Positions 23,473 to 34,340 of a stretch of 64,000 nucleotides of DNA are shown here, piece by piece. Source of the stretch: an uncultured Bacteroidales bacterium. GTDB taxonomy: Bacteria; Bacteroidota; Bacteroidia; Bacteroidales; CAZJKL01. Below the pieces are notes generated by a model. That model saw nothing but the letters and a program-made list of their open reading frames with translations. It did no database searches and was not told the DNA's origin. The translations under genes were made by a program, and so were the position numbers. The DNA lies in NCBI GenBank assembly GCA_964546655.1, contig CAZJKL010000005.1, forward strand, positions 8,220 to 72,219, given 5' to 3'. Within the stretch, counting starts at the first letter, position 1. Each line of letters opens with the position of its first letter.

Positions 23473-24606
23473 TTATTTTATCCAATTCTCAAAATTATTA
23501 GAAGTTATTACTTCGAAACTTGCTTCAGGATAAGTTTTTAACCATTGAGAAGGGGCTTTAAATTTAGAGTCTTTCCACTTAAATTCATAACCATATAATG
23601 AGCCATCTCGCTCTTCAACCCAATCTATTTCTTGTTTATCATATGTTCGCCAAAAGTAATTATTTGAAGAAAATCGTTTGTATTCAATGTATTTGATTCT
23701 TTCGCTTATCATATAATTTTCCCATAATTGACCAATATCATTTCTTGAAGAAATATCATTGAAATTTGCAATTATAGCATTTCTAATTCCATTATCAAAA
23801 AAATACCATCTAGCATTTTTTGTAATTTCTTTTCTATGATTTCTACTAAAACCTTCTACTTTGTGAAGAATGTAAACTTTACTTAATAAATCAAGATATT
23901 TCTCAACAGTATTTTTACTTATCGAAAGTTGGCTACCCAATTCTTGTAATGAAACCTCGCCTCCTATTTGAAATGCTATTAAACGTAGCAGATTAAATAT
24001 TTTTTGAGAGTTTTTTATATTATCATATACAAGAATATCTTTAAGTAAATATGAACTTACAATCTCATTAAGATAATCTATCTTGTCTTTACGGTCAGGT
24101 AAATGTATTAGCTCTGGATAATTACCATAAATAAGTCTTTCTTTTACTTTATCTAGTTTTGAAATTGAATTTTCAATTTGATTATATTCTCTTTCTGAAA
24201 ATGGAAATAAATTAATTGAATATTTTCTACCTGTAAGTGGTTCTCCTGCATCTTTATGTATATCAAAAGACGAAGAACCAGAAATAATTATTTTTAATCC
24301 TTCTATCTCATCAACCATTAATTTTAGTTTAAGTCCAATTTCTGGTATTTTTTGAGCTTCATCAATATATAACAATTTATTTGTTCCAATTATTTGTTTA
24401 TAATTTTCAACTGTTTTAATTGATAATTTATCATGAACATTAATATCATCGCCATTAAGTGATAAATATGGTTCATTAATTTTATTTAATATTTCTTTAA
24501 CAAGAACGGTTTTCCCTACCCTTCTTGCTCCAAAAACTATTACAACTTTATTCGGTTGAAGTTTTTTTATAATATTTTCTGATACTTCTCTAATTAAAAA
24601 ATCCAT
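23473..24606 (-). CDS. COG1373-type AAA+ ATPase with DUF4143 (PD-(D/E)xK-like) C-terminal domain
   Basis: 377 aa with Walker A GARRVGKT, Walker B LLYIDEAQ, a wHTH-like SISKNTVEKYLDLL block and a C-terminal QEIDWVE...YEFKW motif. Paralog of 31825-32952. Confidence 0.85.
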   Translation of the reverse strand: MDFLIREVSENIIKKLQPNKVVIVFGARRVGKTVLVKEILNKINEPYLSLNGDDINVHDKLSIKTVENYKQIIGTNKLLYIDEAQKIPEIGLKLKLMVDEIEGLKIIISGSSSFDIHKDAGEPLTGRKYSINLFPFSEREYNQIENSISKLDKVKERLIYGNYPELIHLPDRKDKIDYLNEIVSSYLLKDILVYDNIKNSQKIFNLLRLIAFQIGGEVSLQELGSQLSISKNTVEKYLDLLSKVYILHKVEGFSRNHRKEITKNARWYFFDNGIRNAIIANFNDISSRNDIGQLWENYMISERIKYIEYKRFSSNNYFWRTYDKQEIDWVEERDGSLYGYEFKWKDSKFKAPSQWLKTYPEASFEVITSNNFENWIK

Positions 24607-30705: not shown

Positions 30706-31740
30706 ATGCAAGATTCTATATTTTTAAAAGCCTTAAATGGCGAAAAATGCAATAGACCTCCTGTTTGGTTTATGCGACAAGCAGGGCGTGTTTTACCTTC
30801 TTATATGAAATTAAGGGAGCAGTATTCTTTTAAAGAACTTATGAATACTCCTGAATTAGCTGCTAAAGTTACTTTATTACCTGTTTATGACTTAGATGTT
30901 GATGCGGCTATTTTGTTTTCGGATATTTTGGTTATTCCTGAAGCTTTGGGTATGAATGTAAATTTTACCGATAAAGGTCCTATTTTCGATACTCCTATTA
31001 AAAATAATTATGACAATATTAATAAGTTAAAAGCTGATACAAATAAGCTTAATCATATTTATTCGGCTATTGAAATTATTAATGAAACCAAACCTAAAAA
31101 TATTCCTTTAATCGGATTTTGCGGAGCTCCATTTACAACATTTTGCTATATGGTGCAAGGTAATAGCATTAACCATTCTTTTAATGATGCTATTAATTTA
31201 ATTTATAATGACATTGAAAAAGCTAAAAAGCTACTCGAAATTATCACCGAACTTTCAATAGAATATGCTGTTAATCAGGTTAAACATGGTATTAATGTTT
31301 TTCAACTATTCGAAACTCATGCAGGTTTATTGCCTTATAAATTGTATTTAGAACTTATTTTACCTTATGTAAATAAAATTTTAAATGCTGTAAGAAGTTT
31401 AAATTGCCCTACTATTTTCTTTCCAAAAGGATTGGGACTTGGAGTAACAAAAATTGATTATAATATAACCGATTTTTTAAGTGTTGATTGGCAATCTTGT
31501 ATTTATGATACACGTAAAATTGTAGATAAAAAGGTTGGTTTACAGGGCAATCTCGACCCTAGAATATTTAATGTAACCGATAAAAAGCTTTTATTTAATG
31601 AATTAGAAAAATTTATTGCCTTTGGATCAGAAAACCATAACTGGATTTTTAATGTTGGTCATGGCTTATCGCCAGAAAACTCATTTGATAATGTAAAAGC
31701 TACCGTTAATTGGATTAAAACTACTGATTGGAAAAGGTAA
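30706..31740 (+). CDS. hemE: uroporphyrinogen decarboxylase
   Basis: 344 aa with the PPVWFMRQAGR signature and GNLDP. Starts 2 nt after hemL. Confidence 0.93.
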   Translation: MQDSIFLKALNGEKCNRPPVWFMRQAGRVLPSYMKLREQYSFKELMNTPELAAKVTLLPVYDLDVDAAILFSDILVIPEALGMNVNFTDKGPIFDTPIKNNYDNINKLKADTNKLNHIYSAIEIINETKPKNIPLIGFCGAPFTTFCYMVQGNSINHSFNDAINLIYNDIEKAKKLLEIITELSIEYAVNQVKHGINVFQLFETHAGLLPYKLYLELILPYVNKILNAVRSLNCPTIFFPKGLGLGVTKIDYNITDFLSVDWQSCIYDTRKIVDKKVGLQGNLDPRIFNVTDKKLLFNELEKFIAFGSENHNWIFNVGHGLSPENSFDNVKATVNWIKTTDWKR

Positions 31741-31749
31741 TATTCTTAA

Positions 31750-31805
31750 AAATATCATAATATTTTTCGGTTTGAATCACAAAATATTATAATAATTTGT
31801 GATTT
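31750..31805. repeat. 56-bp perfect direct repeat, copy 1
   Basis: aaatatcataatatttttcggtttgaatcacaaaatattataataatttgtgattt is identical base for base to 33002-33057. It contains a 9-bp-stem hairpin. Confidence 0.95.
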
Positions 31806-31813
31806 CGTTTTTT
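31775..31813 (+). terminator. hairpin terminator after hemE (inside repeat copy 1)
   Basis: aatcacaaa (12-nt loop) tttgtgatt followed by tcgtttttt. Confidence 0.55.
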
Positions 31814-31824
31814 AATTTAACTTA

Positions 31825-32952
31825 TTAGTTTATTAAAAATTCTTCGTAATTATCTGGATTAACAATTTTTACAATATCTGGATTATATGCATTTGTAAAT
31901 GTACTAGATATTTTAACTTTTTTATTAGGATTCCATTTGAATTCAAAAGCACATATTTTTTCATTTTCAACTTCAATATAATCAATTTCTTGTTGTTGTG
32001 TTGTTCTCCAAAAATATGAATTTGTATCCTTATTTAAATAAGCATTCAACTTTAATCTTTCACTAATAAGATAGTTTTCCCATATAACTCCGGCGTCTGT
32101 TCTATGTTTAATATCTGTAAAATTACCTATAACAGCATTTCTTATCCCGTTATCCCAAAAATATATTTTCATTGATTTTTTTAATTCATTTCTAATATTT
32201 TTACTATATGAATTTAGACGAAAAATTATAAATGATTTTTCAAGAATATCAATATATTTTTCTATTGTAGATTTGTCTGCACCTAATAATTTTGACAATT
32301 CATAGTAAGATACCTCACTTCCTATTTGCAAAGCAAGTGCTTTTGTTAACCTTTCAACAAGTACTGGTTTTTTTATATTTTCTAAACTTAAAATATCTCT
32401 ATATAAATAACTTGATGTTAATGATTTTAGCAATATTTTTGAATAATTGTTTTTACTAACAATTTCCGGATAAGAGCCAAAAATTAAACGGTGTTCTAAC
32501 ATTCGTTTTTCATCGAGCAGTCCATTACTTTTCACTAATTCAGAGAAGCTAAATGGATATAAAACAAATTCTATTTTTCTTCCCGTCATTGATTCTTTTG
32601 TGTAATTTGCAATATCAAATGAGGACGATCCTGTTACTATAAGTTGTACTTCTTTAATATTGTCGCTAATGAGTTTAACTATATTACCAATTTCAGGTAT
32701 TTTTTGAGCCTCATCAATTACAACAATTTTTTTGTCTCCAATAATATTTTTAAGTAAATCTGTTCCTGCATTTTCAAACAAACTTCTTACATCTGGTTCG
32801 TCTCCATTAAGTATTATAGACTCTTTTAAATATTGTTTTATTAGCTGATTGACTAAGGTTGTTTTACCAACTTGACGTGCTCCATATATAATTATTGTTT
32901 TTTTTATTGAAAAAAAATCCAATATACTATTTTCAATTATTCGTTTTATCAT
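31825..32952 (-). CDS. COG1373-type AAA+ ATPase with DUF4143 (PD-(D/E)xK-like) C-terminal domain
   Basis: 375 aa with Walker A GARQVGKT, Walker B VVIDEAQ, a wHTH-like DKSTIEKYIDIL block and a C-terminal QEIDYIE...FEFKW motif. Confidence 0.85.
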   Translation of the reverse strand: MIKRIIENSILDFFSIKKTIIIYGARQVGKTTLVNQLIKQYLKESIILNGDEPDVRSLFENAGTDLLKNIIGDKKIVVIDEAQKIPEIGNIVKLISDNIKEVQLIVTGSSSFDIANYTKESMTGRKIEFVLYPFSFSELVKSNGLLDEKRMLEHRLIFGSYPEIVSKNNYSKILLKSLTSSYLYRDILSLENIKKPVLVERLTKALALQIGSEVSYYELSKLLGADKSTIEKYIDILEKSFIIFRLNSYSKNIRNELKKSMKIYFWDNGIRNAVIGNFTDIKHRTDAGVIWENYLISERLKLNAYLNKDTNSYFWRTTQQQEIDYIEVENEKICAFEFKWNPNKKVKISSTFTNAYNPDIVKIVNPDNYEEFLIN

Positions 32953-32968
32953 AATAAATATTTTAATA

Positions 32969-32976
32969 CAAAGATA
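32969..32976 (-). promoter_or_regulatory. candidate -7 box (TATCTTTG on minus strand)
   Basis: The plus strand reads CAAAGATA, 17 nt upstream of the ATPase ATG. It lies inside the segment bounded by the 56-bp repeats. Confidence 0.4.
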
Positions 32977-33001
32977 CTTTATATTTCAATTGTATTCACT
33001 T

Positions 33002-33057
33002 AAATATCATAATATTTTTCGGTTTGAATCACAAAATATTATAATAATTTGTGATTT
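33002..33057. repeat. 56-bp perfect direct repeat, copy 2
   Basis: Identical to 31750-31805. It overlaps the last 19 nt (including the stop) of the gene at 33039-33452. Confidence 0.95.
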
Positions 33058-33452
33058 AAGTCTATTATTCCAAGCCAATTTAATGTATATTCAATGGTTG
33101 AAAACACTTTATATTCAATAGATTTATTTTCAAATAACTTATACAATAAAGCCCCAACAACTTGTGAAGGTGAATTAGTAATAATAGCTACTTTTATTTT
33201 TGTATTAAAAAGCTGAACGGGCTTAATATTATCTGCGTACTCTTTAATTGTTTTTTCTGAAATATTACTCTCTTCTATATTTCTAATATCTATAATTATA
33301 TTAAAATTTGGATTGTAATCAGCATCTTCTATTTGTAATTGTTTCAGATTTAAATATTCAACAAAATCAAAACTTCCACTCAAAACCTCAATAATCAGAC
33401 TCTTATCTTTAATTATATAATATTTATATTGATTTTTTTTCATGGTTTTCAA
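33039..33452 (-). CDS. hypothetical protein (137 aa; possibly STAS/SpoIIAA-like fold)
   Basis: ORF only, 18 nt downstream of the methyltransferase gene on the same strand. The fold guess rests on the alternating beta/alpha pattern and is weak. Confidence 0.4.
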   Translation of the reverse strand: MKTMKKNQYKYYIIKDKSLIIEVLSGSFDFVEYLNLKQLQIEDADYNPNFNIIIDIRNIEESNISEKTIKEYADNIKPVQLFNTKIKVAIITNSPSQVVGALLYKLFENKSIEYKVFSTIEYTLNWLGIIDLNHKLL

Positions 33453-33470
33453 AAAAATATTCTTGCAATA

Positions 33471-34340
33471 TTATTTCTTAACAAAATACGCTTTTATTGT
33501 ATCTCCTTTTCCTAAAATAGAAAGTTTAAGGTTTATTATATTTTTAATTAATTTCAAAAAAATATTTTCTTCTGCTTTAATCCTTATTTTCTCGTCATCA
33601 GAAGAATTTGAAATTAGTTTTTGACTGCTCTTATTTAAACTTTTTTTATATCTTGTTAAGCTTATTCCTGTGGTTAATATGCATTTTTTAACAAAGCCAT
33701 TATTTGACAATAAGCTATTTATGGTTTTTTTGGTATAATAACTTAAATGTTCGGGGTAATAAATAATGCTCCATTTATCTTTTAAAATATCTCGTGAAAA
33801 TGAGTTAAAGTTTGGTGTTGTTAAATACAATAACCCGCCTTTTCTTAACAAATAATTAAACTTTTTTGCTTCTTCCTGAGGATTATAAATATGTTCAATT
33901 ACTTCAAATGAAGTAACTACATCAAAAGAACCTTCTTCAAAATCACTAATATTTAATTCGCCATGATAAATATTAATTCCTTTTTGTTTGCAAATTTCTA
34001 CTGCTTTATCGGTCATTTCAGTACCATAAACTTCCCACCCTCTTTTTTTTGCTTCTTCTAAAAAGTATCCTATACCACAACCAACGTCAATTAATTTATT
34101 TGTTTTTCTGTATTTTTCTAATTTATCTAAAATTTCATTATATCTTTTTATTGTAATTGGCGACAAATAATCATTTCTGCCATAGCCATCGTAATGAGAA
34201 ATTAATTCTTCGTTTGTAGGTATTTTTTTTGAAAAAACAAAACCACAATCGTTACATTTAACTAAATATGCTCTATTATAGCTAGTTAAAGTGTATAAAT
34301 TATCGCTATTACAAATTAAACATTTTTGATGAAAACTCAT
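33471..34340 (-). CDS. class I SAM-dependent methyltransferase with N-terminal zinc-ribbon
   Basis: 289 aa with CLICNS...CNDCGF (4-Cys ribbon) and SAM motif I, LIDVGCGIGYF. Confidence 0.8.
   Translation of the reverse strand: MSFHQKCLICNSDNLYTLTSYNRAYLVKCNDCGFVFSKKIPTNEELISHYDGYGRNDYLSPITIKRYNEILDKLEKYRKTNKLIDVGCGIGYFLEEAKKRGWEVYGTEMTDKAVEICKQKGINIYHGELNISDFEEGSFDVVTSFEVIEHIYNPQEEAKKFNYLLRKGGLLYLTTPNFNSFSRDILKDKWSIIYYPEHLSYYTKKTINSLLSNNGFVKKCILTTGISLTRYKKSLNKSSQKLISNSSDDEKIRIKAEENIFLKLIKNIINLKLSILGKGDTIKAYFVKK

Follow-up and report, generated by a model that had tools for sequence, protein, structure and literature searches.

What is the function of a perfect 56-bp direct repeat placed around a single ATPase gene? 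The question is raised by a stretch of 64,000 nucleotides from an uncultured Bacteroidales bacterium (contig C5:8220-72219 of a 2.96-Mb, 127-contig draft genome with 27.5% G+C), hereafter the window, where positions 31750-31805 and 33002-33057 bracket a gene for an ATPase-nuclease of the PDC-S01/COG1373 family. This family is very abundant and combines an ATPase with a fused PD-(D/E)XK domain (PMC12988326; PMC3424549). It has been listed among the PD-(D/E)XK members of unknown function (PMC3424549) and ranks as the fourth most common prokaryotic defence candidate, validation of phage protection being pending (PMC12988326).

A preliminary description, made from the letters of the window, had interpreted the unit as a one-gene cassette inserted at, or recombined through, a hairpin terminator lying between hemE and the end of the gene at 33039-33452. 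The comparisons presented here point to another origin of the repeat. It is probably the ATPase gene's own pair of cis-elements, that is, docking arrays resembling operators or iterons which, being direct repeats, would permit precise loss and gain of the gene.

The repeat at the ATPase locus

The two copies have the same orientation and are identical at 56 of 56 positions, as had been described, and their similarity reaches 65 nt (31741-31805 against 32993-33057) with 4 mismatches, which could also be counted as two 2-nt indels. All four are located at one end, which is hemE-proximal in one copy and promoter-proximal in the other. Dinucleotide shuffles (n=100) produced 0 matches to the 56-mer with up to 3 mismatches tolerated, and the whole genome contains two copies of the 65-mer, both at this locus. 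Candidate solo copies elsewhere in the genome were discarded as weak, AT-rich matches occurring by chance within coding regions.

The ATPase gene is the sole open reading frame (ORF) between the copies and has its own -7 box, and the repeat contains a hairpin dyad of 9-10 bp (AAATCACAAA/TTTGTGATT) together with the final 19 nt, stop included, of the 134-aa gene at 33039-33452; on all these points the preliminary description was correct. The repeats of the unit are 56-65 bp long (>30 bp) and no transposase or integrase is found between them. The unit comprises positions 31741-33057, between the hemE stop codon, which abuts the downstream copy directly, and the neighbouring gene with its truncated 3' end. 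The downstream copy begins 20 nt past the ATPase stop, and the -7 box is located 16 nt downstream of the upstream copy. The hemE gene is intact, with a C-terminus (...NWIKTTDWKR, then the stop) in agreement with its homologues. No Rfam family matched the locus region.

The repeat-gene-repeat arrangement is real DNA and not an assembler artefact, because an independent MEGAHIT k141 contig (L034, assembly from ENA) keeps the order hemE-repeat-ATPase-repeat-gene with one single-nucleotide difference, and a Logan k31 contig assembled from a different run stops precisely at position 30 of the repeat, where a branch due to the repeat is expected.

Structure and phasing of the arrays

The 65-nt repeat consists of two tandem, dyad-symmetric units of 32 nt, identified in the upstream array as AAATCACAAATTATTATAATATTTTGTGATTC (unit 1) and AAACCGAAAAATATTATGATATTTAAGTGAATA (unit 2). 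Each unit comprises a half-site, an AT-rich centre and an inverted half-site, and its 32 bp correspond to about three turns of the helix. The 9-bp hairpin noted previously is the dyad of unit 1. In nearly every homologue the upstream region contains 2-4 tandem dyad units of ~32 nt with AT-rich centres, and the arrays of the homologues end at a TAnnTTTG -7 box.

Phasing was measured on the 150 nt upstream of the ATPase gene as their best self-offset. The value was 32 or 33 nt for the gene studied and for 18 of 19 genome homologues (P ~2e-27 under uniform offset choice), and also for 9 of 12 metagenome homologues (P ~1e-11 under the same assumption). The half-site AATCACAAA is common to this gene, L045 and L046; ATATCAAA was identified in Flavobacterium homologues and TCCGAAAA, AATCCAAAAA and AATCGCAAA in further lineages. 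The half-site sequence shifts with the protein lineage and the dyad structure is kept. A position weight matrix of the AT-rich core was dropped as a search tool, being too unspecific.

A terminator had previously been seen in the repeat. A consensus scan of 31500-33600 gave no Rho-independent terminator, and the stem of the repeat has one or two G-C pairs only. A T run (TCGTTTTTT) follows copy 1 and not copy 2, and copy 1 may have a weak terminator role for hemE.

Association of the repeat with the ATPase gene

The loci of 23 relatives of the ATPase (42-74% amino acid identity) and of 17 more (up to 76%) were compared. The neighbours of the homologous ATPases share no protein with the window besides the ATPase itself, and significant repeat matches within 210 kb of homologue loci occur only ~30-125 nt from ATPase genes. 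These include 24 of 25 nt at L046 (E 2e-6) and two upstream matches, 35 nt at 89% in L045 (E 4e-5) and 26 nt at 92% in L048 (E 1e-4). Because repeat-like sequence adjoins orthologous ATPases (70-76% amino acid identity) in non-syntenic neighbourhoods, the repeat, rather than belonging to hemE or the 134-aa gene, is judged to be part of the ATPase unit.

Arrays on both sides of the gene are frequent in the closest relatives. Within the clade of at least 70% identity, two-unit arrays were identified both at the promoter and just past the stop codon in 5 of 6 genes. Upstream and downstream arrays, identical at 56 of 56 positions in the gene studied, are roughly 70-96% alike by eye at L107, L108, L044 (the same as L109) and L046. 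The downstream array is absent from L045, where the next gene starts 8 nt past the stop. At 7 of 19 loci the 250 nt downstream of the gene gave a higher score against the upstream array than any control window of the same locus, with 112 at the present locus against 37 for the best control. Downstream arrays are present at L044, L046, L107, L108, L055 and L112, and an upstream array only was found in 12 of the 19 homologues. Paralogues in three other genomes presented further both-side arrays, with 81-100% identity.

From this distribution, the order array-promoter-gene-array is taken as the ancestral architecture of the orthologue clade. The downstream copy does not appear to be a fresh target duplication, because orthologous cassettes (L044, L107, L108 and L046) carry the same arrangement with diverged copies; the preliminary description had itself named diverged duplicates in relatives as evidence against its proposal. 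For the 56-bp identity at the present locus, the best explanation would be that the copies recently underwent gene conversion or recombined with each other.

A perfect 50-nt repeat surrounds a 43%-identical ATPase in a Candidatus Moraniibacteriota metagenome-assembled genome (MAG; L061, positions 221-270 and 1492-1541). It is located outside the phased array, from -140 to -91 relative to the start codon and from +7 to +56 after the stop, and, unlike the repeat studied here, possibly represents a true target duplication.

Origin of the neighbouring gene end

The last 6 codons and the stop of the 134-aa gene (NHKLL, then the stop) come from unit 1 of the upstream array, and the stop codon sits in the TTATTATAA centre of this unit. 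Homologues of the gene, found in unrelated contexts, end in NWLGISEIDLKGIDLT or similar (IDLKGIDLT or IDFGKIDFYKKV) before the stop, the window protein ends in NWLGIIDLNHKLL, and the similarity stops exactly at the array boundary. Because the protein tail departs from its homologues precisely at the repeat start, the gene end was borrowed from the array and not the repeat from the gene end. The 3' end of this neighbour is truncated, and the gene now terminates inside the array. The earlier proposal that copy 1 is a displaced duplicate of the gene end does not agree with such a tail.

Occupied, solo and empty sites

Three states were seen among related species at an analogous locus, that of a Candidatus Aphodosoma MAG (L055), where a perfect 64-nt repeat is the gene's own two-unit array. 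The joined flanks of this locus were searched in 40 relatives and the matches were aligned. The site is occupied (array-gene-array) in G041. The gene is absent and a solo array is present in G060 and G050 (two units) and in G058 (one unit), and these three share the outer flanks of 42 nt and 25 nt with the occupied site. One unit and the right flank are kept in G066 and G049, where the left side differs. Finally, empty sites without array and without outer flanks were identified in G061, G046 and G062. Because these empty sites lack the array, the array appears to arrive with the cassette; the gene can apparently vanish, and possibly return, through recombination between arrays.

Next to the solo array of G050, ~1.17 kb of extra DNA is located 69 nt to the right (L105, G050:C24) with a 5-6-nt flank overlap, possibly another small insertion at the same hotspot. 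As relatives of the Bacteroidales genome studied, GTDB provided same-order genomes only, and an exact 32-nt scan of the Joint Genome Institute (JGI) metagenomes gave no match.

The ATPase-nuclease

The protein matches PF13173 (AAA_14, E 7e-31) in its N-terminal part and PF13635 (DUF4143, E 1e-40) in its C-terminal part, and the PADLOC profile of PDC-S01 (PDLC04789, E 1.2e-157) covers residues 1-373 of 375. Residues G29 and K30 and D80 and E81 (Walker A/B), and D324, E337 and K339 (the D...ExK of PD-(D/E)XK type), are invariant in 20 homologues. An AlphaFold2 (AF2) model with a predicted local distance difference test (pLDDT) score of 88.9 comprises an AAA+ core, a lid, a winged helix and a C-terminal domain of PD-(D/E)XK type, and its Foldseek matches are the archaeal AAA+ protein SSO1545, RuvB and ORC/Cdc6. 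These are AAA+ plus winged-helix proteins, many of them assembling on DNA. A sequence search of the PDB with the ATPase found no relative. The features of the locus are listed in Table 1.

Table 1. Features of the ATPase locus in window coordinates
Feature	Position	Strand	Basis and details
hemE (uroporphyrinogen decarboxylase)	30706..31740	+	Pfam URO-D, E 4e-96
Downstream two-unit array copy	31741..31805	-	perfect part 31750-31805; unit 1 31805->31774, unit 2 31773->31741
ATPase-nuclease, 375 aa, AAA_14 + DUF4143	31825..32952	-	Pfam; PADLOC PDC-S01; COG1373
-7 promoter box TATCTTTG, Bacteroidota-type	32969..32976	-	read from sequence
Upstream (promoter-proximal) two-unit array copy	32993..33057	-	perfect part 33002-33057; unit 1 33057->33026, unit 2 33025->32993
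DUF7793-like gene, 134/137 aa	33039..33452	-	weak DUF7793 match (Pfam)

Other repeat-flanked cassettes in the genome

The genome contains 20 DUF4143 genes, and three other genomes contain 9-18. Direct repeats that match exactly over 30 nt or more flank 4 of the 16 assessable DUF4143 genes; among the other ORFs of 250 aa or longer, 10 of 1319 have them (Fisher p=1.3e-5). Flanking repeats also occur at about a third of the homologues elsewhere. The DUF4143 paralogues of this genome share at most 55% amino acid identity and are too diverged for a comparison of flanks at the DNA level. A second one lies in the window (23473-24606, 40% amino acid identity to the ATPase), without flanking repeat and without 32-nt phasing, its best offset being 16 nt.

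Repeats of this kind are not specific to COG1373, as a self-BLAST of the genome identified ~20 small accessory units bracketed by locus-specific repeats of 40-430 nt. These comprise RhuM, Fic and KilA-N genes; AbiEi/AbiEii, MNT/HEPN and VapBC pairs; an Rpn-like nuclease; a methyltransferase; and two type IX secretion system (T9SS) proteins, all names having been read from the translated sequences. Several of the repeats duplicate host-gene ends, and the units fit the mode known as insertion with long target duplication. Neither shared termini nor a fixed target duplication was found among 16 repeat-flanked cassettes, whose repeat lengths are 40-427 nt, and ends of a transposon or insertion sequence were rejected on these grounds. 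Significant folding was detected in 3 of 12 repeat pairs around cassettes of this genome. Most cassette repeats have no hairpin, which argues against the hairpin-targeted insertion or recombination considered earlier. A recurrence of long direct repeats around COG1373 genes is supported by the 4 of 16 genes mentioned.

Several of these cassettes deserve a description. To the left of the window, C5:2910-5193 contains a RhuM-like gene with a 349-nt repeat (98%) whose sequence duplicates the promoter and the 5' part of a 165-aa host gene. An additional 75-nt match reveals that the second copy originally reached at least 693 nt and later lost 269 nt from its interior. This copy abuts the end of a tRNA gene, and the whole looks like an insertion with long target duplication. 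Single-gene units are KilA-N (C3:36358-37714, 89 nt), a methyltransferase (C40:24195-25624, 69 nt) and Fic (C24:5715-7202, 78 nt), with repeats ~95-99% identical, the first two of which duplicate 3' ends of the adjoining host genes. At C4:63686-66411, a 1,310-nt unit formed by an AbiEi-like gene and a small ORF is repeated in tandem 2.08 times with 99.3% identity, an R-X-R-X-R order expected from unequal recombination between cassette-flanking repeats.

Two further types of repeat are palindromic. One is a family resembling repetitive extragenic palindromes (REP) or miniature inverted-repeat transposable elements (MITE), TTGTCCTGCTGAGGCACGAAGCATCTC ... AGACCCTTCG..CTCAGGGTGACAAG, identified at ~6360 and ~7080 of the window (C5:14582 and 15299) and at ~25 other genomic sites, often in tandem, often at contig ends and near the DUF4143 genes of C4, C26, C28 and C7. 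The other is a perfect 40-nt repeat at C26:5533-7332, ~190 nt upstream and ~160 nt downstream of a DUF4143 gene of the longer type; it forms a strong hairpin with a 12-bp stem and G-U pairs on the gene strand (z = -6.7), lies near short repeats of CGTAATT type and is not a promoter array.

Interpretation and alternative explanations

As the gene's own elements, the arrays would be docking or operator sites for the ORC/Cdc6-like AAA+/winged-helix module, and the promoter-side copy would provide autorepression. The downstream copy might offer a further platform on which looping or handcuffing could occur, as around iteron-flanked rep genes, or else act as a roadblock shielding a potentially toxic nuclease gene from hemE read-through. 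Recombination between the direct repeats would delete the gene as a 1,252-bp unit, with a solo array left behind at which the reverse reaction would restore it.

Several observations weigh against this interpretation. The 32-nt self-similarity of this gene taken by itself is modest (best offset 32 nt, 17 of 22, shuffle p ~0.1), and the case for arrays is a comparative one and not a single-locus signal. The AT-rich core is of low complexity in a genome of 27% GC, and its weight matrix has 56 scattered genomic matches. The covariation of the dyads is equally compatible with an operator bound by a protein dimer and with a recombination site folded as a hairpin, and the 56/56 identity could mark a recent duplication instead of a conversion. 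Within this genome, 4 of the 5 closest paralogues have no clear phasing (C28 shows a weak peak at 31 nt, p 0.27), and the repeats at the paralogues of C26, C12 and C4 are terminator-like or REP-like, not promoter arrays. Finally, no close relative of the genome was present in the collections searched; the nearest hemE, 72% identical in amino acids, is followed by other hem genes.

The arrays may instead be above all recombination sites, of attL/attR or attC type, which the gene's own AAA+/PD-(D/E)XK protein, or else a trans-acting recombinase, would cut or synapse, with regulation as a secondary effect. This is rather unlikely as the main function, although an attL/attR-like role appears possible given the three-state polymorphism of the Aphodosoma locus. 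In favour of such sites are the occupied, solo-array and empty states, the numerous DUF4143 genes, the non-syntenic orthologues, the intact nuclease motif and a dyad structure conserved over variable sequence as in attC. However, a fixed distance to the -7 box and helical phasing are typical of operators, 12 of the 19 homologues have an upstream array only, and neither conserved cassette termini nor a fixed target duplication is present. Moreover, RecA acting on 56-64-bp repeats suffices for loss to a solo array, and no recombinase gene is adjacent. A bolder proposal unites both functions in an integrase-free, one-gene mobile cassette, in which the ATPase-nuclease would assemble on the arrays at both ends of its gene, repress itself, synapse or cut these arrays, excise the gene as a small circle and re-insert it at solo arrays or new sites. 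It is considered unlikely; if true, a self-mobilising cassette would explain the abundance and patchy distribution of the family in bacteria and archaea.

A local tandem duplication of array and ATPase, with the second gene deleted and an array left as an orphan, would imply neither function nor mobility; cassette amplification does occur in this genome (the 2.08 copies at C4) and identical copies speak for a recent event. It is very unlikely nonetheless, since the orphan array lies downstream and the deletion would need its endpoints precisely at the end of the array and at the hemE stop, and since array-gene-array with diverged copies in 5 of 6 orthologues would hardly arise from independent accidents. 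The insertion with long target duplication put forward earlier, with hemE, one shared hairpin terminator and the end of gene 33039 as the ancestral state and a 1.2-kb insert duplicating 56 bp of host DNA, is highly improbable. In its favour, the mode is known from published restriction-modification units (PMC2853133), the cassettes of this genome with RhuM, KilA-N and methyltransferase genes appear to follow it with their duplicated host-gene ends, and the present stop codon of gene 33039 does fall within the repeat. However, the repeat recurs, conserved, next to orthologous ATPases and coincides with the phased promoter array of the family, the tail of the neighbouring gene is atypical exactly from the repeat start, diverged copies on both sides of orthologous cassettes place the duplication before the occupation of this site, and the analogous empty site of L055 has no copy of the repeat. 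What persists of the earlier cassette is a compact promoter-plus-ATPase unit between long direct repeats; its insertion by duplication of a host target does not, the repeat being conserved with the ATPase. An assembly artefact, or a single path assembled from a mixture of an empty site with a free 1,252-bp circle, is scarcely credible: a draft of 127 contigs may suffer from it, and both configurations share k-mers when k is shorter than the repeat, but the MEGAHIT k=141 contig spans hemE-repeat-ATPase and ATPase-repeat-gene in single k-mers longer than 56 bp.

The phased promoter array of PDC-S01/COG1373, probably a docking array, is duplicated behind the gene as an ancestral architecture, and the long direct repeats around these ATPase genes are formed by the array and not by host DNA, accompanying occupied, solo and empty states among related species. 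At the present locus, one array gives the neighbouring gene its stop codon. In annotation, apparent target duplications or terminator hairpins beside these genes may be their own operators.

Comparison with known systems

PDC-S01 as defined in PADLOC has the same domain pair (AAA_14 and DUF4143), and the present ATPase matches it over its full length. The literature searched treats the protein only, and no description of phased arrays, both-side arrays or cassette gain and loss was found in it for PDC-S01.

Insertion with long target duplication of restriction-modification units was reportedly described by Nobusato in 2000. Such units (Furuta 2010, PMC2853133) are likewise small, of defence type, free of mobility genes and flanked by repeats beyond 30 bp, and repeat-mediated amplification, as seen in them, occurs at the C4 locus of this genome. 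They differ in that their repeat is host target, present once in the empty site, whereas here it is part of the inserted unit and, at the analogous locus L055, is absent from the empty sites and present once in solo-array sites.

Integron cassettes and their attC sites are also one-gene units with imperfect palindromes, structure kept over sequence, and gain, loss and solo states. Unlike them, the ATPase cassette has its own -7 box and helically phased promoter repeats, and no cassette array is present at the locus. The GTTRRRY core of attC was not seen by eye in the 56-mer, whose sole GTT is followed by TGA, and no IntI gene was apparent among the adjacent ORFs, no search aimed at intI having been made.

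Plasmid initiator genes can be flanked by iterons, as in incC-repA-incA of P1 and incB-repE-incC of F. Unlike an initiator, the ATPase is no Rep protein and has a nuclease domain, and its locus is chromosomal and multi-copy and shows no sign of replication or an origin; its arrays, unlike iterons, comprise 2-4 units of 32 bp with internal dyads. Nevertheless, the ATPase has an initiator-like AAA+/winged-helix fold in its predicted model, and in both systems phased direct repeats, the putative targets of the gene product, occupy the promoter, with a second array just downstream of the gene.

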